In this document: positions 7,847-22,655 of the stretch, one piece after another
Layout of the letters: each line of letters begins with the position of its first letter
How positions within the stretch are numbered: position 1 is the first letter of the stretch
Origin: Vicinamibacterales bacterium
GTDB lineage: Bacteria; Acidobacteriota; Vicinamibacteria; Vicinamibacterales; UBA8438
Length of the DNA: 64,000 bases
Direction of reading: 5' to 3'
NCBI GenBank assembly: GCA_965216615.1
Contig: CBDCGH010000022.1
Location: 1 to 64,000, forward strand
Made by a program: the position numbers and the translations under genes
Notes under the pieces: generated by a model
The model's input: only the letters and a program-made list of their open reading frames with translations
Database searches by the model: none
What the model was told of the DNA's origin: nothing

Positions 7847-9340
7847 TTATCGCATCACAAACGGGTTCGGCACGTCGGTGGCGGTGGAGATCCACACGCT
7901 CTTGGTCTGCATGTAGTCACGGATCGCGTCCTGTCCGTTTTCGCGACCGAGGCCGCTGCGCTTGTAGCCGCCGAAGGGCGACATGTAGCTGACCGCGCGG
8001 TAGGTGTTTACCCATACGGTGCCGGCCTGCAGCCGCTCTGAAATGAGCAAGGCGCGGCGGATGTTCTGGGTCCAGACGCCTGCGGCGAGACCGAAGACCA
8101 CGTCGTTGCCGATTTCGATGGCCTCTTCATCATCCTTGAACGGGATCACGGAAAGGACAGGCCCGAACACCTCCTCCTGAGCGATGCGCATCTTGTTGTT
8201 GACCCCGGTGAATATGGTGGGCTCTACGAACCAGCCGTTGCCGCATTCCGGCCGGCTGGCCTTACCCCCGCCGAGCACGGTTTCCACGCCCTCGCCCTTG
8301 GCCACATCAATGTAGCCGAGCACCTTGTCGTACTGGGGAATGTTGGTGACCGGGCCCACCTGGGTCTGTGTTTCCATGGGATTCCCCATCTTCGCCGTCT
8401 TGGCGAAGGCCACCAGCTTGTCGACAAACTCGTCGTGAATCTCTTCCTGAACAAGCAGCCTGGAACCCGCGATGCAGGTCTGGCCGGTGGCAGCAAAGAT
8501 TCCGGACACCGCGCCTTTGACCGCGTCGTCCATCTCACAGTCGTCGAAGACGATGTTGGGGGACTTTCCGCCCAGCTCGAGGCTTACGCTCTTGAGGCCC
8601 TTCGCGGCGGTGGAATAGATGTGTTCGCCGGTTCGATCCGAGCCGGTAAAGGCCACCTTGCGCACCAGCGGGTGCTCCACCAGGGGTCCGCCGCATTCCG
8701 GACCGAATCCGGTGACCACATTGATCACGCCCGGCGGAAACCCCGCCTGCTCGACCAGGCGGGCAAATTCCAACGCCGAGGCACTGGTGTATTCGGAGGG
8801 CTTGAGCACGATCGTGTTGCCCGCGGCCAGCGCCGGCGCCAGCTTCCAGGTCGCCAGCATCAAGGGTGAGTTCCAGGCCGAGATCGCCGCGCAGACGCCC
8901 AGCGGCTCGTGGCGTGTGAAGTTGAACGCGGGCTTGTCTATGGGAATGACGGCGCCTTCAATTTTGTCGGCCAGCCCGCCATAGTAGTAGTACCACTGGG
9001 GCAGGTAGTTGACCTGGCCAGCCATTTCGCTGATGAGCTTGCCGTTGTCTCTAACCTCGGTGCGGGCCAGCGCGTCGGCGTTCTCGGCAACGAGGTCGCC
9101 AAGCCGTCGCATCAGCATGCCCCGCTGGGTAGGATGGAGTTTCGGCCAGTCACCCGCGGTGAAGGCCGCATGCGCGGCCTGCACGGCGCGGTCCACGTCC
9201 TCCGCGTTGGCCTTCGGAATCAGGCACCACGGTTCGGCGGTGTACGGGTCGTAGCTTTCGAAGTATTCGCCGGAGGCCGCTTCGATCCACTCACCGCCTA
9301 TGAACATCTTGTACTTTTGCAAGTTCCCAGCCTCGGGCAT
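7847..9340 (-). CDS. NAD(P)-dependent aldehyde dehydrogenase
   Basis: ALDH family hallmarks ELGGKSP and FxxxGQTCIAGSR (catalytic Cys), plus EEVFGPV. ATG at 9340 with a GAGGAGG RBS 7 nt upstream; the upstream-extended start is rejected. Confidence 0.9.
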   Translation of the reverse strand: MPEAGNLQKYKMFIGGEWIEAASGEYFESYDPYTAEPWCLIPKANAEDVDRAVQAAHAAFTAGDWPKLHPTQRGMLMRRLGDLVAENADALARTEVRDNGKLISEMAGQVNYLPQWYYYYGGLADKIEGAVIPIDKPAFNFTRHEPLGVCAAISAWNSPLMLATWKLAPALAAGNTIVLKPSEYTSASALEFARLVEQAGFPPGVINVVTGFGPECGGPLVEHPLVRKVAFTGSDRTGEHIYSTAAKGLKSVSLELGGKSPNIVFDDCEMDDAVKGAVSGIFAATGQTCIAGSRLLVQEEIHDEFVDKLVAFAKTAKMGNPMETQTQVGPVTNIPQYDKVLGYIDVAKGEGVETVLGGGKASRPECGNGWFVEPTIFTGVNNKMRIAQEEVFGPVLSVIPFKDDEEAIEIGNDVVFGLAAGVWTQNIRRALLISERLQAGTVWVNTYRAVSYMSPFGGYKRSGLGRENGQDAIRDYMQTKSVWISTATDVPNPFVMR

Positions 9341-9434
9341 TACGGGTTGCCTCCTCGTTGAATTGGTTGCGATCGTGATCGTGTTGGCCATCGGCTACAC
9401 GGTCGCCATCTGGCCAGCGTCGTTTCGCTCGACG

Positions 9435-10796
9435 TCACGCACCGTCGGACTGGAACAGCTCGGTGAGCCTTCGCACATCGCTCACCTCGTCCAAGTGCAT
9501 AAGCGCCGTCCAGGCGGGCTCGATCGCCGCCTGCGGCATCGATCGCCGCGCGCATCCGTCGAACTTCACGGCGAGTTCTTCGTCGGTCAGGCGGCCGGGG
9601 TAACCGCGCGCGCCGTCGGACGACTGGCTGACCGTGCGCCCGTCTCGCAGCCGCACGGTGACGCGAGCTTGCGACAGCGGGGCTGCCGCATCGTAGGCGG
9701 GGTTCGCGCGCAGCGTGACCCGCGGCAACAGCGCCTGGACGGCCGGCTCCTGGATGCGCTCAACATCGAAGGTCGCGACGTCTAGTCGTCCGTGGACGAT
9801 GGCCGCCGCCGCGCAGAACGGCATACTGAACTTGGCTTCGAGGCCGGTCGCGGGCCGATCGTAGATGAGCAGTCTGGGCGTCATCGAGTCGACTTCCACG
9901 TCGATCGTGTCGACCTGCTCGGGCGTAATGGCCTCGCGGCGCGCGAGGTCGATCAGCGCATCGAGCGGCGGATGCGTGGCGGCGCAGCAGGGGTACAGCT
10001 TGACGGTGATGCCCGTCTCCAGGATCTCCCATCTGGTGCCCAGATCGGCCACCGCGTCGTCGAGCCCCGCGTTCTGGCTGTCCATGACGGCCAGATAGCC
10101 CTGGGGTCCGTCAAGGGCCTGCGCGCTCGCGGTGAATCCCTCTCGCGCGAGCCGGGCGGCCATGACGCCGTTGCGGGCCGCCAGTCCCGCGTGCAGCGGC
10201 TTCACCATGGTGCCGAGGTTTTCCTTGAGGCCACAGGCGGACGACGCCGCGATGCCGAGCGCGTGCCCGGTCTGATCGATGTCGAGCCGAAGGATGCGCG
10301 CCGCCGCCGCCGCGGCCCCCAGCGTCCCGATCGATGACGTGCAGTGCCAGCCGCGCTCGTGGTAGTGCCGCGGGTTCATGACGTTGCCGAGGCGGCACTC
10401 CAGCTCGAAGCCCACGGTGTAGGCGTCGACGATCGCGGAGCCGGACGCCTGCACGAGCTCGGCCGTGGCGAACGCCGCTGGGACGAGGGCGCAGCTCGGG
10501 TGGGCGAGCGAGACGAAGCACATATCGTCGAAGTCGAGGGCGTGAGCGGCCACGCCGTTGGCCAGGGCCGCCTCCTCAGGACCGACGAGCTGGGGCGTAC
10601 CCAGGATGCGGCACTCGCCGCGCCCGCCGGCCAGACCCCGGACGACCCGCGCAGCCGGCTCAACGGCGCCGGCGAGGATGACGCCGGCGGTGTCACGAAA
10701 GGCCGCGGCGGCACGCATCCGCGCCGCGTCGGGCGGTACGGCGGCCGCGAGAAACTCGGCCACGCGGATGGTTCCTGTTTCGGTTTCGACGGTCAT
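9435..10796 (-). CDS. MmgE/PrpD family protein (2-methylcitrate dehydratase-like)
   Basis: Colinear with the MmgE/PrpD fold (~450 aa). ATG at 10796 is preceded by GAGGAGG. Confidence 0.82.
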   Translation of the reverse strand: MTVETETGTIRVAEFLAAAVPPDAARMRAAAAFRDTAGVILAGAVEPAARVVRGLAGGRGECRILGTPQLVGPEEAALANGVAAHALDFDDMCFVSLAHPSCALVPAAFATAELVQASGSAIVDAYTVGFELECRLGNVMNPRHYHERGWHCTSSIGTLGAAAAAARILRLDIDQTGHALGIAASSACGLKENLGTMVKPLHAGLAARNGVMAARLAREGFTASAQALDGPQGYLAVMDSQNAGLDDAVADLGTRWEILETGITVKLYPCCAATHPPLDALIDLARREAITPEQVDTIDVEVDSMTPRLLIYDRPATGLEAKFSMPFCAAAAIVHGRLDVATFDVERIQEPAVQALLPRVTLRANPAYDAAAPLSQARVTVRLRDGRTVSQSSDGARGYPGRLTDEELAVKFDGCARRSMPQAAIEPAWTALMHLDEVSDVRRLTELFQSDGA

Positions 10797-11025
10797 CAAA
10801 GAGCCTCCTCAACAACGAACAACCAACGACTTGCCAGATCATACTGAGCTGCAGGACCAACGGACCCGAGAACACACCAGGTTGCAACTGGATCGTCCCA
10901 CCGGGCAGCGCTTGAGAGGGTGGCGTTGTCGGAGATGAGTACCCCTACGGGACGGACAAGCGGGCCCACCCTCGGGAATCGAAACGTGACGACAACGTCG
11001 ATCCGAGACGGGTGGACGATAGCAG

Positions 11026-12018
11026 CTATTCTGACTTCGCGGCGCGATGTTCGGCCTGGGCTCCGGCGAGGATGTTCGTTAGACCGTAGTTACCTTCGTG
11101 GCACGCGTACTCGTACAGGACATTGTCGACCCGCGTCATCGTCATCTCGGCGGTCCACGGCTGCGTAAATGCCGTCGGATCGTCGACGGTGAACGCATAC
11201 AGCAGTGTGTCGGCATCGAGGCGGCTGAACCGCTCGACGAGATGGAGCTCCGGACCCAACGCCTCGAGGACCTCCATGTTGGGCGAAGGGTGGGCAGTGC
11301 CCAGATCCCTGAAGTTCCGGGTCTCGACCACCAGCGTATCCCCGTCCCAGTGCCCGCGCGAGTCGCCCCTCCACTGCTGGATGTCCGCAGGCAGCGGCGG
11401 ACGGCCGTCCAGCGGGACGATACGCGCGTCGTTCACCATCTCGTTGAACAGCACCACATGTCCTGGCGCCTGGAACAGCTGGAAGAGGTTGTTGTACGCA
11501 CCGGGCAGCATCGGCGGACCGGAATTGAACCCGAGGATGCACCGCTCGTCGACGTCAGGGTCCTCCGGGCCCGCGTTCCGCAGTCGCGCCTCCACGCGGA
11601 GCGCCATGCGCGCCTGTCCGTCGGCCTGGTAGGCTGGCAGTTGCCCGTCCGGTGGGTCGACGATCAGCGATGTGCGCCTGGTGCCCACGACCTTCGTGCC
11701 GGAGGCAAACCAGAACCGGTTGTAGCCGCCGGGGTCGCCCGGAGGTGGCGGCCGGTCGACCCGCCCCGCGGCCTGTGCTTCCAACGCTGACACATCCTCG
11801 TCGGTCAGGAATTCCTTCCCGGCCATTGCGGCAGGTCGTCGCAGCGGTGTCACGGAGGCAAAGTCCCAGACGCCCTGGAGGTCCGGGCGGCCATCCGGCA
11901 TGCGTGGCACCGATGCCGCGGCGGATGATGATGACGATGATGGCTGCGCGTCGACAGAGACGGGCGCGAGTGATGCAACGGTGGTCAACACGACGAGAAT
12001 CGCCTTGAAGCTGTTCAA
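11026..12018 (-). CDS. Secreted conserved protein of unknown function, paralog A (YACHEGNY C-terminal motif)
   Basis: ~330 aa. Proposed TTG start gives the signal peptide MNSFKAILVVLTTVASLAPVSVDA. It shares PDLQGxW, IVPLDGRP, QWxGDSRGxWDGDTLVxET and YEYACHEGNYxL blocks with the divergent neighbour 12253..13221. The start is uncertain: a strong SD+ATG at 12052 lies in another frame. Confidence 0.55.
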   Translation of the reverse strand: MNSFKAILVVLTTVASLAPVSVDAQPSSSSSSAAASVPRMPDGRPDLQGVWDFASVTPLRRPAAMAGKEFLTDEDVSALEAQAAGRVDRPPPPGDPGGYNRFWFASGTKVVGTRRTSLIVDPPDGQLPAYQADGQARMALRVEARLRNAGPEDPDVDERCILGFNSGPPMLPGAYNNLFQLFQAPGHVVLFNEMVNDARIVPLDGRPPLPADIQQWRGDSRGHWDGDTLVVETRNFRDLGTAHPSPNMEVLEALGPELHLVERFSRLDADTLLYAFTVDDPTAFTQPWTAEMTMTRVDNVLYEYACHEGNYGLTNILAGAQAEHRAAKSE

Positions 12019-12252
12019 GGGCCTGCGAGTCCCGCAGGATCTGGACCTGCATCTGAACCTCCCTATTGACCACCATGGTCGGTAACTCTTTTCCTGCCAT
12101 CTTAACCCAGCCGAGGCCGGCAGCATGCTGTGCTGCGTCTGCGTGCCCCCGCTGCACGGGTTCGCCTGCCCTCGCAACACCGACACTCGACCGGGATGTG
12201 GCGCTCAGTTCAGAGAGCACGCAAGCGTCTTGGTTTGTATCATCTGAGGCGC

Positions 12253-13221
12253 ATGGCAACCGGCCTTTTCCGCGTGGCTGTCGCCGTCCTGATGTCGGTG
12301 GTCCCTGTTGGTGTGTGTGCGCAGCCCTCGATCGGTGGCGATTCTGTGCCCCGGACACCCTGGGGGGACCCCGATCTTCAGGGGATGTGGCCGAGTAGCA
12401 GCGTCGTGATGGTGCCCTTCGAACGACCGGAGGAACTCGGTACCCGGACATTGTTTACCGCGGAGGAGCACGCGGCCCGAAACGGTGAGATCGCGGCAGC
12501 GCTCGACCGACTGTATTCGCGGGCCTGGGTCGAACCAATCTGGGCCAGCGAGGTCGCGAACCCACCCCGACAGGCCTCCCTGGTCGTCGACCCAGAGAAC
12601 GGTCGGTTGCCACCAATGACGGAGGACAGGCTCCGCCGCGCCGCGGCATGGACGACCAAGTCCCTGCCGACATATTCGTACCCGAGCGCTGCTGACCTCC
12701 GACCGTACGACCGATGCATCACGCGCGGTCTCCTCGGGTCGGCGTTCCCAAACTATTACGGGTCGGTCACTGCCATCTTTCAGACGCCGGAGTTCGTCGT
12801 CATCCACCACGAGATGATCCACGAGACTCGTGTGATCCCGCTTGACGGGCGCCCCCACTCGGCGCCGGGTATTCGCCAATGGATGGGTGATTCGCGCGGG
12901 CGGTGGGACGGTGACACGCTGGTCATCGAAACAACGAGTTTCAACGGGCGCACCGGTTCCTACTGGCGGAATGGCAACGGGAACCCGACGAGCACGGCCC
13001 TACGCCTCGAGGAACGGATTCGGTTGCGGACCGCCGAAACGCTCCAGTACGAAGTGACGGTGGAGGATCCCGAAACATGGATTCGGCCCTGGACCGCCGC
13101 GTTCTCCCTGCCACGGGACGATGCCTACGTTATCCACGAGTACGCCTGCCACGAAGGGAACTACGCCCTGGCGAACATGCTTAGGGTGGCGAGGCTGGCC
13201 GAGTATGCGAGCGGGCACTAG
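12253..13221 (+). CDS. Secreted conserved protein of unknown function, paralog B (YACHEGNY C-terminal motif)
   Basis: ATG at 12253 with GAGG upstream. Signal peptide MATGLFRVAVAVLMSVVPVGVCAQ. Colinear with paralog A (VIPLDGRPHSAPGIRQWMGDSRGRWDGDTLVIETTSF...HEYACHEGNYALANM). Confidence 0.6.
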   Translation: MATGLFRVAVAVLMSVVPVGVCAQPSIGGDSVPRTPWGDPDLQGMWPSSSVVMVPFERPEELGTRTLFTAEEHAARNGEIAAALDRLYSRAWVEPIWASEVANPPRQASLVVDPENGRLPPMTEDRLRRAAAWTTKSLPTYSYPSAADLRPYDRCITRGLLGSAFPNYYGSVTAIFQTPEFVVIHHEMIHETRVIPLDGRPHSAPGIRQWMGDSRGRWDGDTLVIETTSFNGRTGSYWRNGNGNPTSTALRLEERIRLRTAETLQYEVTVEDPETWIRPWTAAFSLPRDDAYVIHEYACHEGNYALANMLRVARLAEYASGH

Positions 13222-13314
13222 AAACGACTAGTAGGAATGGCGCCCGCTTGCCCTCATCCTCGCGTGGACGTGGCCTTGCCCGATGGGGGGGAATGCAGAT
13301 GCGGTGGATGAGGC

Positions 13315-13500
13315 GTGCCCGAACACGATGAGGTGACGTTTACCAAACACATCGTCCCCATCCTGCAGCGCTCCTGTCAGGTCTGTCATCGCGCGGGCGA
13401 GATGGCTCCGATGTCGCTGGTTACGTACGAGGAGGTCCACCCGTGGGCTCGGTCGATCCGTCTCCGAGCCGGCGCCGACCACGGACCAGTGACGTTCGGC
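13315..13500 (+). pseudogene. Orphan N-terminal fragment of a PSCyt1-like (Planctomycete cytochrome C domain) CxxCH protein
   Basis: MPEHDEVTFTKHIVPILQRSCQVCHRAGEMAPMSLVTYEEVHPWARSI matches the F-x-x-x-I-x-P-I-L-x-x-x-C-x-x-CH-(G) signature of the N-terminal domain of PSD1/DUF1553-type proteins. The frame degenerates after ~60 aa and overlaps the 3' end of a convergent gene. Confidence 0.35.
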
Positions 13501-13529
13501 CCTGCACGCTCAGGATGCCACGGTGCGAG

Positions 13530-14414
13530 TTACTTTCGGATGACACCTCTCGGATCGACTGCGTCGCACCACGCTTTCACCTCTGCGCGATCCGTCGCGT
13601 TGATGTCGGTCTCGGTATAGCTGTCGAAGGGCGCCGGCATCGGAAGCAACATCAGGTTCATTGAGAACTGGCTGCACTGGGCGCGGTGACAGCTGGTGCA
13701 GGTGTTCTCAGGCGCGCCGTCGTGAATCGGTTGCGTAAAGTCCTCGCCAATGATTGTGTAGGGTGACGTGGCGGTCGCCGTGAGGGGGACGAGGGGCTGA
13801 GTCGGATCATCCGGGTCTTTGACCTGGTCGATCCAGGGAGAGTGAAGCCAGGGGTCGGCCTGATGACAGCCATGGCAGTTGTCCTCCGCGACCACCTCTG
13901 CTGTCTGCCAGTAGATGTCGTAGTCGGGGTCATTGGAGCCCGGGTGCACCTCTTCGTTGTTCGCCGCGTGGCTCATATGAAAGAAGCAGGTTGCGCCGGT
14001 TTCACTGTTGTGTCCGATCACGCCCATGCCGCCGTCTCGACAAAAGTTCATGAACGTCACCTCAGGTCTCGGACTCCCGTCGTGGTAGGTGCCGATCGAG
14101 TGACCCACCTGTGCGGGCTGGCAGCCGCCTGTCAGCGCCGAGGGCCGGTCGCAGCTGTCGGGCCAACCACTCACAGGCTCACCGTCGACCGTGATGGGGA
14201 TGTCGAAGGCCTCCGTGCAGCTCATGGCCGGAATTGGACCGAGGTATCGCGCGCAGGTCTGCGCGTGATGAAGCGGCGTGCCGGGCGCAGCCGTCACAGG
14301 GGGGGCGTCCGGATCCGAGACCAGCTCGGTAGTTTGGCGGTGTGGTTGAGTTCGTGTCGCTTCTACAAGCGCGATGAGAGAGAGCAGACAGAGCAGGATG
14401 GTGGCCTGTCGCAT
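13530..14414 (-). CDS. Secreted Cys-rich protein with two CxxCH motifs (putative dihaem c-type cytochrome-like)
   Basis: ATG at 14414 with an AAAGGGAG RBS. Signal peptide MRQATILLCLLSLIALVEA. 13 Cys, including NCHGCH and CTSCH haem-binding-type motifs. Same strand as the upstream radical SAM/SPASM gene, but ~220 bp apart. Confidence 0.5.
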   Translation of the reverse strand: MRQATILLCLLSLIALVEATRTQPHRQTTELVSDPDAPPVTAAPGTPLHHAQTCARYLGPIPAMSCTEAFDIPITVDGEPVSGWPDSCDRPSALTGGCQPAQVGHSIGTYHDGSPRPEVTFMNFCRDGGMGVIGHNSETGATCFFHMSHAANNEEVHPGSNDPDYDIYWQTAEVVAEDNCHGCHQADPWLHSPWIDQVKDPDDPTQPLVPLTATATSPYTIIGEDFTQPIHDGAPENTCTSCHRAQCSQFSMNLMLLPMPAPFDSYTETDINATDRAEVKAWCDAVDPRGVIRK

Positions 14415-14633
14415 CGTGGGAACTCCCTTTATGCGCTCATCGTACCGGACAGAGAAGCCGTCGTCGACTCTGATCCGTGATCGTCGCGTTGGCACGCCCC
14501 GGAAGCTCTATACTCTCGTTCGCGAGACACGTCGTTGAGCATCCTGAAGATGGCATGGCGGAGTATCGGGCGCAACCGGCGCCGCACCGCGGTCACCGTC
14601 GCGGCGACGACTCGCGCTGTTTGCCTTGGTCGT

Positions 14634-15641
14634 CTACGACGTGGCCGTTTCGGTGGGGACCCGAGCGCTCGGCAAGATCGATCCGGCTCGGTTGACTGCC
14701 TTGCCGACCCGCAGGGATGCATACAACAGCGTATCGACGCGTAACCCGCCCAGCAGTCGGTGGCGTCCAACAGCCGCAAGACCCGCCGACGCTGCACATC
14801 CGCATTCTTCGCACACAGGTGCGCCGCCGAATTGGCAGGGGCCAATCCGAGTATCGAGGTCGGCGGAAACACACGCCGTCGTCTTCGCAAAGACGCACTC
14901 GTCTGGCGAAGCCGGTGGAGCAGCGTAGGCCTCGACCATCGCCTTGGGCATCGCAAGCTTGGGGAATCGCCTTCGGATCGACAGCAAGTCAGCAACGACC
15001 CGCGACCGGTCCTCGGCCGTCAGCCGTTCGTCAGACACCTCGCCTGTTTGCGGGGTGTACAGGCTGATGAGAATCTTCTCTACCGCGTCGTGGGCCGACC
15101 AGGTGTCCACGAACTCCTCCACGTATCCCACTCGTCTGGCCTGCTGTCGTGTGACAGTGCAATACACCGTCACGCGGCGACCCGCGATGTGCTTGAGAAT
15201 GCGGTCGTACGTGGCGGGCTGTCGACGTGCGTCGTGCTCGGGCTGCAAGCCGTCAATCGACACGGACAATTCGAGGTTGGGCAGCGACGCCCACTCGATG
15301 GGAATCGGGCGAACGGCGCTGGTCACCACCTGAGTGTGGATTCCTTGGGCCGCGAGCCTGGGTAGGATTCGAGACAGCTCACGGTAGCGCACGAGCGGCT
15401 CTCCACCCACGATCGACACGTGAAGCGGACGATGCTTATCGACGAGGGTAAAGAAACGGTCTACCAACGCATCCCCGCTGAAATCACTGAGCTGGCGCAG
15501 ATTGACCGAGTTCCCCAGGTGGTTGCTCGAGTACGCGTAACATCCGGGACACGTCAGGGGACACTCACGGGTAACCTCGACCGACAGCACTGGCAGGTTG
15601 CCCTGAAGAATCTTGCCCCACGCACGAAAAACCCCGTCCAC
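14634..15641 (-). CDS. Radical SAM protein with C-terminal SPASM domain (peptide/cofactor maturase type)
   Basis: CPLTCPGCY (CxxxCxxC) radical SAM cluster motif at the N-terminus. C-terminal CQFGGAPVCEECGCAAS is a SPASM auxiliary-cluster motif. GTG start with an AAGGGGG RBS. Confidence 0.85.
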   Translation of the reverse strand: MDGVFRAWGKILQGNLPVLSVEVTRECPLTCPGCYAYSSNHLGNSVNLRQLSDFSGDALVDRFFTLVDKHRPLHVSIVGGEPLVRYRELSRILPRLAAQGIHTQVVTSAVRPIPIEWASLPNLELSVSIDGLQPEHDARRQPATYDRILKHIAGRRVTVYCTVTRQQARRVGYVEEFVDTWSAHDAVEKILISLYTPQTGEVSDERLTAEDRSRVVADLLSIRRRFPKLAMPKAMVEAYAAPPASPDECVFAKTTACVSADLDTRIGPCQFGGAPVCEECGCAASAGLAAVGRHRLLGGLRVDTLLYASLRVGKAVNRAGSILPSARVPTETATS

Positions 15642-15710
15642 GACGATGACCCCCTTTCCCTAACCGTGAGCTAGTCCCCTTGATCTTTGATTTCTTCAAA
15701 AAGTCGTTGG

Positions 15711-16601
15711 TCATCTGGGGCCACCGTGGACTTGAACGGTGCGCTGTCCGAACCGCTTCACCTTCGCGAGGATCTCGTCGGCTGTTTTCGTCCACTTGAA
15801 AGGCTTGCCCTCGTCATTGTGGGCGTCCACGTAGGCGGAGATGGCGTGGCGCAGCGCGTGCGTGCTGGAATGTGAGCCGCGCTTGAGGGCGTGTTCGGTG
15901 AGGAGGCCAAAGAACCGCTCGACGAGGTTGAGCCAGGCGGAGTAGGTTGGCGTAAAGTGGAACTGGAAGCGCGGGTGGCGGGCCACCCATCGTTTGACCA
16001 GCGGGGACTTATGCGCCGAGAGATTGTCGAGGATCACGTGGACGGTGAGGGTGGGGTCCACCCGCTCGTCGATCTCGCGCAGAAAGCTCACGAAATCCCT
16101 CGACCGATGCTGCTTCTTGGTTTGCGCCACGACCTGGCCGGTCGCGACGTTGAGCGCCGCGAAGAGGTCCACCGTGCCATGGCGGATGTAGTTGTGCGTC
16201 TGGCGTTCGGGCCGACCCATGTCCATCGGCAGGATCGGCTGCGCTCGCTCGAGGGCTTGAATCTGAGGCTTTTCGTCGAATGACAAGACAACGGCGTGGT
16301 CGGGTGGATTCAGGTAGAGGCCGACAATGTCCCGCACCTTCTCGATGAACAGCGGGTCGTCGGAGATCTTGAAGGATTCCACGACATGCGGCTGCAACCC
16401 GAAGGTGCGCCAGATGCGGCCCACGGTGGAGGCACTGACGCCAGCGCGCTCCGCCATCTTGCGGGTGCTCCAGTGGGTCCGCCCCTTCGGCTTACTTTCC
16501 AACGTGGCGACGAGGATCGACTCGACATCCGCATCGGACGCCGTTGTCTTGTCATTCGACAGTCCGGGGGGCTCCGGGCTTGGGCTCGTCATACAGCGCA
16601 T
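15711..16601 (-). CDS. IS630 transposase OrfB (second HTH plus DDE catalytic domain)
   Basis: THWSTRKMAERAGVSASTVGRIWR HTH, then DDE_3-type core (VLSFDEKPQIQALER ... HVILDNLSAHKS ... YSAWLNLVERFF) characteristic of the IS630/Tc1 family. Confidence 0.85.
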   Translation of the reverse strand: MRCMTSPSPEPPGLSNDKTTASDADVESILVATLESKPKGRTHWSTRKMAERAGVSASTVGRIWRTFGLQPHVVESFKISDDPLFIEKVRDIVGLYLNPPDHAVVLSFDEKPQIQALERAQPILPMDMGRPERQTHNYIRHGTVDLFAALNVATGQVVAQTKKQHRSRDFVSFLREIDERVDPTLTVHVILDNLSAHKSPLVKRWVARHPRFQFHFTPTYSAWLNLVERFFGLLTEHALKRGSHSSTHALRHAISAYVDAHNDEGKPFKWTKTADEILAKVKRFGQRTVQVHGGPR

Positions 16602-16839
16602 CCACGCGACCTGTCGTAAACCGCTGCCGCCACTTGCCGACCGTCACATTCGAACAGCGCAGTTTCGCCGCGACCGCCACGTTCGATTCGCCATGCGCGC
16701 ACCTCAGGACGATCTTCGCCCGCAAGGCTACATGCCGATTCGTTCTGGCGCGCCTGGCGAGCCGCTCAAGTTCTCCTCGCTCCACGGCGGTGACTTCCAA
16801 TCTCGCTTTGGGCCGACCTGTTCTTGCCATGCCGCCCAA
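16552..16839 (-). CDS. IS630 transposase OrfA (N-terminal HTH part)
   Basis: HTH region LRAKIVLRCAHGESNVAVAAKLRCSNVTVGKWRQRF. It ends in a C6 run (gccccccgg) where a -1 slip would fuse to OrfB, giving ...KPGAP/PGLSNDKTT..., the canonical IS630 junction. Confidence 0.8.
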   Translation of the reverse strand: MGGMARTGRPKARLEVTAVERGELERLARRARTNRHVALRAKIVLRCAHGESNVAVAAKLRCSNVTVGKWRQRFTTGRVDALYDEPKPGAPRTVE

Positions 16840-16965
16840 TACATCACACCCGGCACACTTCTTAAAGCTTTTTCAGACACAAGGGACTAGCGACTGTACT
16901 AGATATTCGCGTGATGGGTACCAGCTTGGGGCCGGTTAGGCGAGCGTCCGAACGGCTGGTAGGTG

Positions 16966-17280
16966 CTATTCAGCGGCCTTTACGAGGACCGGATCGATCA
17001 CGGTGGCGCTGGGTGTCGCCGCGCGAGCCTGAGCGTGAGCGATAACAAGAGCCGTTTCGGTTTGTGCCATCTCGCACCAGTACTCCAGCATTGATGAACC
17101 CGTCAGAAACGTCCGTGCACTCAGTCGATGCTCGGCGGTCGTGCCCGGACTTTCGAGATCCCGAAATGCCTGAAAAATGACTCGCGCGGCCAGGCGTCGG
17201 TGTCCGACGCTCGCCGATGAGAGTGGGTCCGGTAGAGGACTCCACGGCGCACCGAACACTGAGCGACGAAACCCTGTCAC
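16966..17280 (-). CDS. Hypothetical small protein (104 aa)
   Basis: ORF with no recognisable domain. Same strand as, and between, the IS630 and the B12-radical SAM gene. Coding status uncertain. Confidence 0.2.
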   Translation of the reverse strand: MTGFRRSVFGAPWSPLPDPLSSASVGHRRLAARVIFQAFRDLESPGTTAEHRLSARTFLTGSSMLEYWCEMAQTETALVIAHAQARAATPSATVIDPVLVKAAE

Positions 17281-17328
17281 CGAGTCGCCTCCCCGCGACC
17301 GCAGATAGTCGTACCCATCAGCTCTCGC

Positions 17329-17637
17329 TCATGCCACCGGCTCACCTAGCTCGGCCCGAAGCTTCTTCATCGTCGTCCGAAGTAGAGGTGTAATCGCACT
17401 TGAGCCCACAGTCTTGATGTTGGCCTGGACGTCCACCATCGCACTCGATGCCTCCTGTCCGCCCGAGATGGCCAGGGCGAGCTCCTCCACGCTAGCCCGT
17501 AGACGCGCGCATCGTGAGTCTTTCCCCAACCACCCGGCATACCGTTGGAGGTCCTCGAGCAGTTGCTGAACGCGTGCGTTGGTAGCCTGGTCGGAGTCCT
17601 GTGTGATGTGTGACATCTCGTATCGAGCACCAGCCAT
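17329..17637 (-). CDS. Hypothetical small helical protein (102 aa)
   Basis: ORF directly downstream of the B12-radical SAM gene on the same strand. No recognisable domain. Coding status uncertain. Confidence 0.25.
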   Translation of the reverse strand: MAGARYEMSHITQDSDQATNARVQQLLEDLQRYAGWLGKDSRCARLRASVEELALAISGGQEASSAMVDVQANIKTVGSSAITPLLRTTMKKLRAELGEPVA

Positions 17638-17799
17638 CCGTGGCCGGTCGCGCGCACTGACACGCTCTGTAAATGAAAGGGCTTTGGTGAGGACTGTGGG
17701 CTTCCGGCCCGGCAGAACACCGAGGGGCAGTCGGCAGGTCTCAGAAAAGCAGTACCAGGCAACTGTACACCGATCATGCGGCCCATAGGGCGCGTTTCT

Positions 17800-19109
17800 T
17801 TAGAGCCGCTGTTTGATGATCTCCATGTACCGGCGCTTTCGCTTCAGGAACTCGCGCTCGTTGTAAATCTCCCCAAATAGCCCGCGCAGGCCGTCTTCGA
17901 GCTGCTCTACGGTCATGTTCCGGGGCTGGAAGTTCACGTCGAACAGGGTGCAGCGGTCCCAGAAACGTTCCTGGAGGAGCCGGCCCTCGCGCCGCAGCCG
18001 GTCGTAGAGCGGGGTTCCCGGGAAGGGCGTCTGGACCGTGACCTGTACTTCCAGGAGGCCCGAGCGATCGACGAACTCTTTCACTCGCTCGAAGATCTCC
18101 GGTCCGTGATTGTCGAGGCCCACGATGAAGCAGCCGTTGACCGTAATGCCCCGCGACTGAATGTCATCGATCGCCTCGACGTAGCGATCAGCGCGCTTGC
18201 GCTTCCAGTTCGCGGGATCGATACCGTCGAGATCCTTCTCCCCAGGACTCTCGAGCCCGATCAGGATCTGCCGACAGCCGCTCTCTGCGAGCAGGTCGAG
18301 CAACTCGTCGTCGTCCGCGACCGAGATATCTGTCTCCGTGAACCACTCAATCCCGAGCGGAGTGATCGCCTTGAGGAACTCCTTGCCCCACTTCTTGTTA
18401 ATGAACGTATTGTCGTCGGCTAGCTCGAAGAACGGGCGGTCGGCGACCTCGAGACCTGCCCGGATCTCGGCGGCGGCTTCGTCGACCGGCTTCTGTTGGA
18501 ATGAGGACGTGATGCGCAGGCTGGCTGCGCAGAACTCGCAGTTCAGCGGGCAGCCCCGGGAGGTCTGGACGGTGAGGCGGTTGTACGGGCGTCCGGCGAG
18601 CAAGTCGAAGCGGGGACGGGCGTAGTGCGGTGCTTCGAACACGCCCGAGCGCAGCCCTTCGTAGCGCCCCTGCATGCGCCCCCGCTTGAAGTCGTCGACG
18701 AGCTGCCTTTCCGCCACGCGCCCTCGGCGCCGTAGAGCACCACGCTGTCCGCGTGCTCCGCGGCTTCGTCCGGCAACAAGCTGACATGGAGTCCGCCGAG
18801 CACCACCGGAATGCCTGCCGCACGATAGCGATCGGCGAGAGCATAGGCCTCGTCGATCTGCGCCGTGAACGACGAGATGCCGACGAGATCGAACGACTCC
18901 AGTTCCGCCTCGGGATCGAAGTCCTGAACCTCACGGTAGGCGACCTCGCAGTCGTCGGGGGTGAGCGCCGCCACCGTGAGCAGGCCGAGGCTGGGTAGCG
19001 ACGCCACGACCTTTCCGCGGCTGACGAACTGTGGAAGGGTGACGCCCAGCTTGACCAGGTCGGGATTCTTGATTCGGACGCCGCTCATCGCGATGAGTCC
19101 GACCTTCAT
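17800..19109 (-). pseudogene. B12-binding radical SAM enzyme (class B, methyltransferase-like), frameshifted between the B12 and radical SAM domains
   Basis: ORF 18543..19109 encodes a cobalamin-binding domain (MKVGLIAMSG...GIPVVLGGLHVSLLPDEAAEHADSVVLYGAEGAW). ORF 17800..18717 encodes the radical SAM core (RGCPLNCEFC) plus a C-terminal domain. The frames meet in ggcggaaaggcag (~18700-18718), where a 1-nt indel would fuse them into a ~436-aa protein. Confidence 0.72.
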
Positions 19110-19345
19110 CGCTTTGTCTCCACGTCCCTCAAGAGATCGAGCACCTGCCGCAGCGTGCGGAGCCCTGCGAGATGTTCGTCGGGAAAGCGCACCCCGAAAC
19201 GCTTCTCGGTTGCCGCGAGCACACGGAGAGCGGCAAGACTGTCGAAGCCCAACTCTCGAACCAGGTCGTCGTCGAGCCCGACGCTGTCCACGTCGAGACG
19301 GGACTGACGAGCGAGGATCTCCCGCAGCTCAGTTTCCTGCGACAT
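19106..19345 (-). CDS. Acyl carrier protein
   Basis: 79 aa. Phosphopantetheine-attachment motif LGFDSLAALRV. ATG at 19345 with an AGGAGAG RBS. Its stop overlaps the start of the B12-radical SAM gene (ATGA). Confidence 0.8.
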   Translation of the reverse strand: MSQETELREILARQSRLDVDSVGLDDDLVRELGFDSLAALRVLAATEKRFGVRFPDEHLAGLRTLRQVLDLLRDVETKR

Positions 19346-20909
19346 GGGCGCTCTCCTGCGCGACAAGCCGTCGCCGGATCTTGCCCGACATCGTTCGTGG
19401 CAAGGGGTGCTCGAGTCGAACCATGCGAGACACTCTCAAACGTGCGGGCGCCGCCGCGCGCAGATGGTCGAAGGCGTCCCGGATCCGATCGTCCAGGAAG
19501 TCTTGTGCTTTGGGAACGACGAAGAGGACGGGGATGTCGTTGCCGTCCGGCGCGCTCACGGGAGCCACGCACAGCTCGTCGAACAACGGATGCGCATAGT
19601 GGGACTCCACCTCGTCCGGGTAGATTGTCTCGCCAGAGGCGGTGACCATCGCCTCCTTGATCCGGCCGGTCACGAACAGGAAGCCGTCTTCGTCCAGGCG
19701 ACCCCGGTCTCCCGTTCGCAGCCAGCCGTCCTGGAGCACAGTAGCGCTCGCCGCGGGATCCTTGAAGTAGCCACGCATGACGTTCGGCCCGCGCACCAGA
19801 ATCTCGTCGTCACGACCGACACGCACCTCGACGCCGGGCAGCGCGCGCCCGGAGGAGCCGGCTGGGCACTCGCCAGCAAACCCCACCGTCACGATGGGAC
19901 TGGTCTCGGTCAGGCCGTAGCCCACGTCCAGACGGATCCCGAGCTGGCTCAGGACCCCTGCCCACGCGGGATCGAGCGCGGCGCCCCCGACGATGAGCGT
20001 GTGCAGTGTCCCGCCGATCTTTTCGCGAACCCTGCGACGAAGACACTCGTCCGACCGTAGAGCCCCCGCAATCCGTCTGGGGTCACCACCGTGAAGATCC
20101 GCCTCGATCGCATCCGGCTCGCGAAGCTCCTCCAAGGCCTGGGTAATGAGCTCGTGGACGAGGGAGGGCACCGTCAGCGCGAGCGTGATGTCGTCCTCGC
20201 GAAGGCAAGCCAGCAGCCGGTTGGGCAAGGGCGGACCGGGAAAGACCACCCGCGCGCCACAGGCCAGGGGACCAAGGAGTCCCGCCGTCAGACCGAACAG
20301 ATGAGCGGGTGTTACCGCTGCGAGCATTCCGTCTTCCGGTCCTGCGTCCCGGGTCTCGGAGAGGGCTCGCAGATTGCTGAGCAGGTTCGCATGGCTGATT
20401 TGAACGATGCGCGGTCTCCCGGTGCTGCCGGACGTGAACGCCAGCAGGGCGACGTCATCCGGCGCGCTCTCGGCCGCGACGCACGGCTCTCCCCCAAACA
20501 GGCGATCCGGCGTGAGCATCTCGAGGCGTCGGAACCCGCGTCTCAGCTTCCCAGTGCCAGGATCGACGATGGCGACCTTTGCGCCGGTGTACATGGCGAC
20601 CTTCGACGCCAGCGACCGCTCCACCTCAACGGGAAGCGGGACGGCGACCGCGCCGGCTGCCTGAATGGCGAAAAACGCCGCCGCCCAATCGGGTCCCGGC
20701 GTGGCCATCAGAATCACGCGTTGGCCCGGTCGTACGCGGTGGGCCTGTAGGGCGCCCGCTCCTCGAGAGGCGTCGTTCCACAATCCTGCGTACGATCGAC
20801 CGCCATTCCCTGTCGACCGCGGTCGTGTGACGGCCGGGAAGTTGCCGAACCGCGCCGCGCTTCGTTGAAGAAGCTCGGGCAGAGATCTCGACGGGCCGAC
20901 GTTATCCAT
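19329..20909 (-). CDS. Acyl-AMP/acyl-CoA ligase (AMP-dependent synthetase; FAAL-like, upstream of an ACP)
   Basis: ANL superfamily motifs FTSGSTGRPR, GYGLTETS and TGDRGRLDEDGFLFVTGR, with a C-terminal SGKIRRR. It overlaps the downstream ACP gene by 17 nt. Confidence 0.85.
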   Translation of the reverse strand: MDNVGPSRSLPELLQRSAARFGNFPAVTRPRSTGNGGRSYAGLWNDASRGAGALQAHRVRPGQRVILMATPGPDWAAAFFAIQAAGAVAVPLPVEVERSLASKVAMYTGAKVAIVDPGTGKLRRGFRRLEMLTPDRLFGGEPCVAAESAPDDVALLAFTSGSTGRPRIVQISHANLLSNLRALSETRDAGPEDGMLAAVTPAHLFGLTAGLLGPLACGARVVFPGPPLPNRLLACLREDDITLALTVPSLVHELITQALEELREPDAIEADLHGGDPRRIAGALRSDECLRRRVREKIGGTLHTLIVGGAALDPAWAGVLSQLGIRLDVGYGLTETSPIVTVGFAGECPAGSSGRALPGVEVRVGRDDEILVRGPNVMRGYFKDPAASATVLQDGWLRTGDRGRLDEDGFLFVTGRIKEAMVTASGETIYPDEVESHYAHPLFDELCVAPVSAPDGNDIPVLFVVPKAQDFLDDRIRDAFDHLRAAAPARLRVSRMVRLEHPLPRTMSGKIRRRLVAQESAHVAGN

Positions 20910-21206
20910 CGCTATCCATGACGGGACACGAGTCTGACCATCGCACGAGGGATGCCAACGGGCTGGCTTTCATCCAAGTCCTTCTTGCTCAGTTGATTAG
21001 GTCACTCATGGCATGGACGGAACTGTCGAACGCACCGGCGAGGTCGGACATTTTGTGTCAGGCGATGTACGTTAGATGCGCATCCAGGGCCAGCCCAACC
21101 TGGCGGGACACCGTGGCCTACCGGCCGCTGTTCGAGTGGGACTGGGCCCAGTGTTATGCTCGCAACCGTCTTCGGCGCAGGAGCGTCAGAGTTTGGAATG
21201 GGCACA

Positions 21207-22655
21207 ATGACAGAGCCTTCATTGTTTGTTGTTTTCGGCGCCACCGGCGACTTGTCGCGCCGCAAGCTGCTGCCAGCGCTGGCCCGGAACGAGGCCGATG
21301 GGCACCTTCACGAACGCTTTCGCGTCGTTGCGGTCGGCCGATCGCGTAAGGAAGACGAGGCGTTCCGAGAAACAGCTCGTGAGTCGCTGGCGGACGCGGG
21401 GTTCGACAACGCCGAGATTCAGAGATCGGCGAGCCGTATCCACTATCAGGGCCTAGGCGAGGGAACGACGGAGGACTACCGGGCGCTCGGCAGGCGGCTC
21501 GAGCATCTGGGTCGCGAGCACGACATCCCGCCGAACCACTCGTTCTACATGTCGCTGCCTCCGCGCGCGTTCGACCCCACCGTGGGCGGACTAGCTCGTG
21601 CCGGACTCAACGGAGGGCCAGGCTGGACGCGGCTGGTCGTCGAGAAGCCGTTCGGCAAGGACTTGGAGTCCGCCCGTGAGCTCAACTCGCGGGTTCACGA
21701 GCACTTCGACGAGTCGCAGGTCTACCGGATCGACCACTATTTGGGTAAAGACACCGTTCAGAACCTCTTGGTCTTCCGTTTTGCCAACGCGTTCATCGAG
21801 TCGAACTGGAACCGCGAGCGGATCGAAGCTGTGCAGATCACCGTCGCCGAGGATCTCGGCGTCGGGACCCGCGCCGGCTACTACGATCATTCCGGCGCTC
21901 TGCGTGACATGGTGCAGAACCACCTCACACAGCTGCTGACGCTTGTGGCCATGGAAGTGCCGACATCGTTCTCGGCCGAGGCCATCCGCAACGAGAAGAT
22001 CAAAGTCCTGAAGTCCATCCAACCGCTGGACATCGACAATGTCGTCCGGGGCCGGTACACGCGGGGCGAAGTTCGAGGCGAGACTATTCCTGGCTACCTC
22101 GAGTCCGAGGGCGTGGCCGATGATTCGACGACAGAGACGTTTGTCGCGCTCAAGATGTTTGTCGACTCATGGCGTTGGCAGGGCGTGCCGTTCTTCCTAC
22201 GAACGGGGAAGTGCTTGCCCCGGAAGACGACGCAGATCACGGTACGATTCCGCCGGGCTCCGGTCAGCTTCTTCAATCGGATGGGGTGCGATGCCGACAC
22301 AAGCGACGTGTTGACCATCACGCTGCAGCCCAACGAGGGTTTTACGTTCTATCTGGACATCAAGAAACCGAGCTCGTCGCTCGAGATCGAGCGTATTCCG
22401 CTGCGATTCCGCTACGATACCCACTTCGAGCAGACGATGCCGGACGCCTACCGGACGCTGTTGCTTGACGTGCTCAAAGGTGACCAGACGCTCTTCGTGC
22501 ACGCCGACGAAGTCGAGGAGAGCTGGCGCGTGTACAAGCCTCTCATCGAGACCCCCCCCAAGCCATGCGACTACGTCGCTGGCACGTGGGGACCGCCGGA
22601 AGCCGACGGGTTGGCGGTCCCCGAAGCGCTTCTTCTGCCGCGAGAACCCGCTTAG
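21207..22655 (+). CDS. zwf: Glucose-6-phosphate 1-dehydrogenase
   Basis: FVVFGATGDLSRRKLLPAL NADP-binding motif, RIDHYLGKD active-site motif, and full-length colinearity. The start may be 21198 or 21207. Confidence 0.93.
   Translation: MTEPSLFVVFGATGDLSRRKLLPALARNEADGHLHERFRVVAVGRSRKEDEAFRETARESLADAGFDNAEIQRSASRIHYQGLGEGTTEDYRALGRRLEHLGREHDIPPNHSFYMSLPPRAFDPTVGGLARAGLNGGPGWTRLVVEKPFGKDLESARELNSRVHEHFDESQVYRIDHYLGKDTVQNLLVFRFANAFIESNWNRERIEAVQITVAEDLGVGTRAGYYDHSGALRDMVQNHLTQLLTLVAMEVPTSFSAEAIRNEKIKVLKSIQPLDIDNVVRGRYTRGEVRGETIPGYLESEGVADDSTTETFVALKMFVDSWRWQGVPFFLRTGKCLPRKTTQITVRFRRAPVSFFNRMGCDADTSDVLTITLQPNEGFTFYLDIKKPSSSLEIERIPLRFRYDTHFEQTMPDAYRTLLLDVLKGDQTLFVHADEVEESWRVYKPLIETPPKPCDYVAGTWGPPEADGLAVPEALLLPREPA

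Follow-up and report, generated by a model that had tools for sequence, protein, structure and literature searches.

Lipid-modifying radical S-adenosylmethionine (SAM) systems have been reviewed, and those covered are Tes, Mss, Gms, GrsA/B, Gmm, Cds, HpnH/J/P/R, Jaw5 and the ladderane cluster (PMC13459092). The ladderane cluster was nominated by the same genomic logic that applies to the locus described here, an acyl carrier protein (ACP) gene lying beside the gene for an uncharacterised B12-type radical SAM enzyme (PMC13459092). Acidobacteria make iso-diabolic acid yet are without Mss homologues (PMC13159169). The locus is a block of genes at positions 13530–20909 of a 64,000 nucleotide stretch of DNA (the window) from a Vicinamibacterales bacterium (GenBank assembly GCA_965216615.1, contig CBDCGH010000022.1, positions 1–64,000). 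It includes genes for an adenylate-forming ligase, an ACP and a radical SAM enzyme with a B12-binding domain (B12-rSAM), followed by two small open reading frames (ORFs), an insertion sequence (IS) of the IS630 family, a second radical SAM gene and the gene for a secreted, cysteine-rich protein. All of the ORFs listed in the first-pass annotation were present on the minus strand at the positions where it had placed them. It had read them as a single cassette or pathway.

Comparison with other genomes did not bear out the single pathway. Relatives of the second radical SAM gene were found at at least 518 genome loci (one genome per species), and the best 80 of these, sharing 60–67% identity and nearly all labelled as Vicinamibacterales or Acidobacteriota metagenome-assembled genomes, were inspected by tblastn over 10 kb on either side where the contig reaches. 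The ligase, ACP, B12-rSAM, small ORFs and cysteine-rich protein were found at none of the 80. Likewise, none of approximately 13 loci of the B12-rSAM operon with flanking sequence carries the second radical SAM gene, the small ORFs or the cysteine-rich protein gene, and homologues of the cysteine-rich protein were found elsewhere in unrelated contexts. The first-pass annotation had set synteny at orthologous loci as the check on its reading, with chance juxtaposition as the alternative, and the orthologous loci are not syntenic.

We consider it about 75% probable that the block consists of independent units lying side by side as a mosaic, in a part of the chromosome that is variable and IS-active and belongs to a Vicinamibacterales-like acidobacterium. 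The first unit (17800–20909) would be the remnant of a widespread four-gene operon that has lost its membrane-protein gene, and the second would consist of the two small ORFs, which have a low GC content at third codon positions (GC3) and are probably acquired DNA. The third would be the IS630 copy, the fourth a stand-alone radical SAM gene that is common in Vicinamibacterales and lies at or near its native position, and the fifth an independent gene for a secreted protein with two haem motifs.

The conserved operon

The ligase gene (19329–20909, minus strand, 526 aa), the first gene of the operon remnant in the window, encodes an adenylate-forming enzyme of the ANL superfamily with matches to PF00501 (E 6e-60) and AMP-binding_C. 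Its top NCBIfam models were long-chain or FadD3-type CoA ligases, all under their cut-offs, and its closest PDB relatives were feruloyl/fatty-acyl-CoA synthetases and 4-coumarate-CoA ligase (4CL). The gene had been labelled a fatty acyl-AMP ligase (FAAL), and this label was not supported. The FAAL model NF006624 scored 121 bits (cut-off 600) versus 217 bits for the long-chain CoA ligase model NF004837, and a FAAL structure, 3pbk, appeared in approximately 20th place, after feruloyl-, fatty-acyl-, 4-coumarate- and oxalate-CoA ligases. The ACP (19106–19345, minus strand, 79 aa, with the longest ORF reaching 19366) was identified by PF00550 (E 4e-15) and by a DSL phosphopantetheine-attachment motif. 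The gene coupling described earlier was confirmed, with the ligase and ACP genes overlapping by 17 nt and the ACP stop and radical SAM start codons sharing an ATGA at 19106–19109. The 17 nt overlap with a dedicated ACP gene, kept across phyla, suggests that the ligase loads the ACP.

The B12-rSAM gene (17800–19109, minus strand) is read in the window as two frames, 18543–19109 and 17800–18717, and its intact form encodes 434 aa. The protein contains, in order, PF02310 at the N-terminus (47 bits against a cut-off of 32.1, residues 33–128), PF04055 (64 bits) and PF13282 (DUF4070). The CxxxCxxC motif of the radical SAM core lies within SRGCPLNCEFC, and its three cysteines were invariant in an alignment of 28 sequences. 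Both a B12-binding domain and a CxxxCxxC core, the domain features of class B radical SAM enzymes, are thus present, as had been proposed, and the use of cobalamin is putative. The closest solved folds were those of AprD4 (template modelling (TM) score 0.63), MgmA, TsrM and CysS, with AprD4, MgmA and TsrM matched over the full length. No NCBIfam equivalog fitted, the top match being HpnJ with 81 bits of the 578 needed. Membership of the HpnJ or HpnR families was rejected, as the score was far under the cut-off where a model matched.

When the frame was repaired, thousands of homologues of the B12-rSAM were found. The top 120 shared 75–91% identity, and nearly all were 433–450 aa in length, with 434 aa the exact length of most. 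Where a source was named, it was Vicinamibacterales, Gemmataceae, Verrucomicrobia, Latescibacteria and Polarisedimenticolia, so that this level of identity extends across Acidobacteriota, Planctomycetota, Verrucomicrobiota and Latescibacteria-type genomes. The partner ligase shared 46–51% identity in the same comparisons. The closest relative (L081) was 84% identical in blastn, and the homology covered exactly positions 17797–20911 of the window, from the ligase start to the radical SAM stop, with nothing else nearby, in a comparison that reached as far as the L-PSP gene at that locus. The ligase in L081 was 79% identical to the ligase in the window. A metagenome scan with the B12-rSAM as the query yielded few long loci. 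A scan of positions 12000–22000 of the window with Rfam found no cobalamin riboswitch and no other RNA.

In loci from several lineages, the common arrangement was membrane protein, ligase, ACP and radical SAM. This full order was found in all nine of the loci that include the ligase and enough upstream sequence (L081–L083, L085, L087 and L107–L110). The position of the ACP gene was kept in L081, L083, L085, L087 and L107–L112; in L111 and L112 the ligase alone is missing. In L088 and L092 the membrane-protein gene was found directly upstream of the radical SAM gene, with no ligase or ACP match in between. Since the ligase, or both the ligase and the ACP, can be missing, the constant core of the operon is the membrane protein and the radical SAM enzyme. 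The membrane protein is small (119–169 aa), with four transmembrane segments and no Pfam match, and is 61–68% identical across phyla. The gene was located at bases 7789–8208 in L081, 7808–8167 in L083, 5754–6164 in L107, 5713–6162 in L108 and 7211–7720 in L111. The genes around the operon were different in each lineage. Judged by this sequence conservation, the ligase, ACP and B12-rSAM genes form a genuine conserved operon with no curated family match, and the first-pass annotation was right that the trio fits none of the named pathways.

The translational coupling, the DSL and CxxxCxxC motifs and the fold similarity to AprD4, MgmA, TsrM and CysS together suggest a possible chemistry for the operon. 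The ligase would adenylate a carboxylic acid and charge the dedicated ACP with it. The radical SAM enzyme, using a 5'-deoxyadenosyl radical and possibly cobalamin, would then modify an unactivated carbon of the ACP-tethered acyl group, and the membrane protein, as the most constant partner, may couple this modification to the membrane. In one lineage (L107), the operon is followed at bases 9351–14672 by genes for a sulfatase, a type III polyketide synthase, an ICMT-family methyltransferase and an MMPL transporter. This set, seen in that lineage only, resembles alkylresorcinol-type clusters and hints at an acyl starter-unit role.

State of the operon copy in the window

When the membrane-protein sequences of four orthologues were used as tblastn queries, nothing was found in the 64 kb window. 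The usual place of the gene is filled by the 246 nt (20910–21155) between the ligase gene and the divergent zwf gene, which form the truncated 5' border of the operon, and homology with L081 stops at 20911. Because the membrane-protein gene is missing, the copy in the window is probably non-functional or decaying.

The B12-rSAM gene had also been described as frameshifted, and the cassette as inactivated. The frameshift is present in the sequence and is due to a 5 nt insertion at 18708–18712 (window GCGTGGCGGAAAGGCAGCTC; sister contig GCGTGGCC-----GCAGCTC). However, it is private to this assembly. Two near-identical sister contigs, L084 (99.7–99.8% identical to the window) and L113 (98.6% identical), are in frame at this point and both read AWPQLVDDF, with the outgroups L081 and L085 in agreement, and the insertion is missing from all four. 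As regards inactivation, the operon has also lost its first gene, which is normally obligatory.

The sister contigs carry private lesions of their own. In L084 these are +1 and +2 indels in the ligase gene and a CAG to TAG change in the radical SAM gene. L113 has six indels, and as its housekeeping gene gnd is also broken, this assembly is clearly error-prone. The contig names include the tags 6.47x for L084 and 3.06x for L113, presumed to be read depth. These observations leave some room for the operon being intact and functional in this organism, with the lesions introduced by low-coverage long-read assembly and the membrane-protein gene located elsewhere in the genome. No frame-breaking lesion is shared between assemblies, both sister contigs carry the tags just given, L113 is broken in gnd as well, and the ligase and ACP are full-length in the window. 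Against this, zwf, pgl, gnd and the ROK gene (4.4 kb) are identical in the window and L084, whereas the cassette (3.1 kb) differs by three single-nucleotide polymorphisms and three indels, a cluster of differences that relaxed selection fits as well as assembly error does. The membrane-protein gene also adjoins the operon at every other operon locus with upstream sequence. An intact operon is possible but the less likely state, and we favour a degenerate remnant.

The other units of the block

The two ORFs of approximately 100 aa in the first-pass annotation are present, and no family match was found for either. The first, sORF1 (17329–17637, minus strand, 102 aa, or 95 aa from the second Met), had no homologue in Pfam, NCBIfam, PHROGs or a plasmid tblastn search and, apart from the window, was seen in the sisters L084 and L113 alone. 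The second, sORF2 (16966–17280, minus strand, 104 aa), can be placed in a family of small proteins, mostly 70–130 aa in length, that has no name and comprises 204 representative clusters at E<=1e-3. The family has a conserved helical core with variable tails and the motif YRRLAxRVIxQAFRDL...SARxFLAGSxMLxxWC; residues L30, A31, V34, A38, D41, F58, W68 and C69 were invariant in the alignment. For sORF2, PHROGs gave nothing significant and the plasmid tblastn search was empty, and it was not found at the other loci examined, the sister contigs excepted. The one contig with a homologue that was looked up for context was only 911 nt in length. The GC3 of the small ORFs (0.67–0.69 for sORF1 and 0.59 for sORF2) is low compared with that of the neighbouring genes (0.72–0.84), and for this reason they are probably acquired DNA. 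A Cys/Gly-rich core, which had been suggested as something to look for, was not found in either small ORF. The proposal that they are precursors of a ribosomally synthesised and post-translationally modified peptide was rejected, as there was no precursor-like core and no conserved adjacency, neither small ORF lying beside either radical SAM gene at any other locus.

The assignment of the IS (15672–16889, minus strand, with the IS proper at 15674–16887 and a flanking TA duplication) to the IS630 family was confirmed by NF033545 (210 bits against a cut-off of 100) and by DDE_3 and helix-turn-helix (HTH) domains. The IS is inserted at CTAG, with the TA duplication within a palindromic GCTAGC, in the spacer of approximately 108 nt between sORF2 and the second radical SAM gene. 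It does lie about 30 nt upstream of the GTG start of the latter, as had been reported, but both neighbouring genes are intact, and it interrupts no gene and splits no operon. The transposase frame in the window is broken by a 19 nt insertion near 16541–16560 that is missing from L084 and L113, where a single intact ORF (351 or 366 aa) was found. A segment approximately 240 nt away, in reverse complement, is identical to this insertion, which forms a perfect 23 nt inverted repeat with 16275–16297. At this GCTAGC site in L084 (bases 8770–9972) the IS is inverted relative to the window, whereas L113 has the orientation seen in the window. The difference may reflect excision followed by re-insertion, independent insertions at a CTAG hot spot, or a strand error in assembly.

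The second radical SAM gene (14634–15641, minus strand, 335 aa, GTG start at 15641) had been assigned to the SPASM type, an assignment that found no support. Pfam gave only PF04055 and Fer4_12. No PF13186/TIGR04085-type match was found at E<=0.01, and every NCBIfam match was at or below 35 bits (cut-offs 170 to 650) and was confined to residues 16–230 or thereabouts, the N-terminal core. The C-terminal domain contains six invariant cysteines, spaced C-x7-C-x11-C-x7-C-x2-C-x-C, which differs from the SPASM spacing CX9-15GX4C...CX2CX5CX3C...C. NirJ, AhbD, AhbC, PqqE, the QHNDH maturase and HpnH were each rejected as an identity for this enzyme, with scores of 19–34 bits against cut-offs of 225–650. 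AnSME was rejected as well, and no AnSME or MftC model was among the 25 best of its 30 NCBIfam matches. A PDB sequence search produced no match, and PHROGs only weak generic radical SAM matches. An AlphaFold model (predicted local distance difference test (pLDDT) 78) likewise resembled generic radical SAM cores only, with query-normalised TM scores of up to 0.49 among the radical SAM matches.

The commonest neighbour of this gene in other genomes is a SET-domain gene, found at 64 of the 80 loci, and the other neighbours vary. Its closest independent orthologue (L114, 81% identity, on a contig carrying a 39x label) has an ApbA-family gene on one side and, on the other, a paralogue of the gene at 11026–12186 in the window. 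This arrangement suggests that the second radical SAM gene of the window is in or close to its native place and that its upstream DNA has been exchanged. The gene at 11026–12186 (minus strand) forms a paralogous pair with that at 12130–13221 (plus strand), both encoding proteins of approximately 330–390 aa with no Pfam domain. Paralogues of this pair adjoin the L114 orthologue, and others were found at 4 of the 80 radical SAM loci and, in L081, within a few kb of the operon. The window also differs from L084 by a 22 nt indel at 12002–12038.

The secreted protein gene (13530–14414, minus strand, 294 aa) was as described, encoding 13 cysteines and two CxxCH motifs, with a likely start at 14414, 219 nt after the stop of the second radical SAM gene. 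The N-terminus, MRQATILLCLLSLIALVEA, is an apparent signal peptide, and the CxxCH motifs are CHGCH at residue 180 and CTSCH at residue 239. The search for homologues yielded only 84, all of them with no Pfam domain. Both motifs and several other cysteines were invariant among 25 of these homologues. No cytochrome Pfam domain was detected in the protein and nothing significant was found in PHROGs. The neighbours of the homologues are VTT or epoxide-hydrolase genes in some cases and MacB/FtsX transporter genes in others, but in no case a radical SAM gene. The gene is an independent one, its product is a candidate dihaem c-type protein, and the conserved motifs point to a candidate dihaem c-type family that is undescribed.

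Several points weigh against a mosaic that includes a degenerate remnant of a B12-dependent operon. All of the units are co-directional and close together, so that read-through transcription is possible in this strain, and a new, lineage-specific functional link may be compatible with the lack of synteny elsewhere. The membrane-protein gene may be present in a part of the genome beyond the 64 kb window. Finally, the label B12-dependent can be only putative because AprD4, the nearest solved fold, is to our knowledge a diol dehydratase that carries the domain yet does not use cobalamin.

A recent rewiring confined to this lineage, in which the second radical SAM gene would now be co-transcribed with the operon remnant by read-through from the operon or from the transposase gene, appears improbable. 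In the window and L113 the transposase gene reads toward the second radical SAM gene on the same strand, with the end of the IS approximately 30 nt from the start codon, and a scan of the block for promoters and terminators found nothing beyond chance level, terminator-like sites between the genes included. However, the inverted IS in L084 means that even within the population there is no fixed arrangement, the operon is without its membrane partner, and private frame-breaking lesions were found in all three assemblies. The original proposal, a single pathway in which the ligase and ACP, both radical SAM enzymes and the small ORFs produce a lipidated or crosslinked peptide or a modified lipid and which was recently broken by the IS630 and the frameshift, is very improbable: the tight packing of the genes on one strand and the possibility that the six invariant C-terminal cysteines bind auxiliary clusters speak for it, but the combination is absent from the 80 radical SAM loci and approximately 13 operon loci, the sORF2 family is without a Cys/Gly-rich core and sORF1 is an orphan, the second radical SAM enzyme is without a SPASM match, the cysteine-rich family occurs elsewhere without any radical SAM gene, and homology of the operon DNA ends at the B12-rSAM stop codon. 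The mosaic of independent units therefore remains the preferred reading.

Comparison with known systems

A composite cassette in which an acyl carrier and a secreted cysteine-rich protein accompany two radical SAM chemistries would have been unprecedented, and is now seen as a chance juxtaposition. Of its parts, the IS is typical of the IS630/Tc1-mariner group in having DDE_3, an N-terminal HTH and the TA of CTAG as its target, and is unusual only in its orientation in one sister contig and in the 19 nt insertion. The second radical SAM enzyme shares a MoaA/PqqE-like N-terminal core and additional C-terminal cysteines with the SPASM/twitch maturases (PqqE, AnSME, PapB, NirJ/AhbD and QhpD). It differs from them in that the matches are weak (PapB, HpnH and others) and in that no conserved precursor peptide or usual partner adjoins the gene.

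What is left standing is an operon that has a membrane protein and a radical SAM enzyme of the B12 type at its centre, is very strongly conserved and occurs in several soil-bacterial phyla. None of the reviewed lipid-modifying systems is listed with the membrane protein, ligase, ACP and radical SAM architecture of this operon (PMC13459092). The B12-rSAM scored only 37 bits against the ladderane model TIGR04072 (cut-off 360), and the operon is not accompanied by FabF, FabZ or polyketide synthase (PKS) genes. A literature search for the combination of ligase, ACP and B12-rSAM found no relevant paper among those that could be searched. The membrane-protein partner of the operon suggests a lipid substrate. 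Membrane-spanning and branched lipids of bacteria serve as palaeoclimate proxies, and radical SAM enzymes that work on lipids in membranes or on carriers are sought to explain them. The operon and the six-Cys radical SAM enzyme are reasonable candidates. It is a speculative and rather unlikely proposal, put forward tentatively, that the four-gene operon is an undescribed ACP-dependent system for radical tailoring of lipids, degenerate in the window, with a candidate role in how acidobacteria form alkyl chains of the iso-diabolic acid or branched glycerol dialkyl glycerol tetraether (brGDGT) type. The six-Cys radical SAM enzyme of Vicinamibacterales could be a second, independent candidate for such chemistry. 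For the operon, the intact copies in L081, L083, L107 and L108 are better starting points than the truncated copy in the window.

The closest relatives of the operon's enzyme remain the class B radical SAM enzymes. The B12-rSAM has the same domain order as AprD4, the MgmA/Mmp10-type enzymes, TsrM, CysS and HpnJ/HpnR/BchE, but falls far below the cut-off of every named model for these families. We know of no named class B enzyme that has been described with a conserved four-transmembrane protein, a ligase and an ACP as partners. On present sequence comparisons, the operon thus represents an uncharacterised, class-B-like member of the radical SAM enzymes with an unusual and constant membrane partner.

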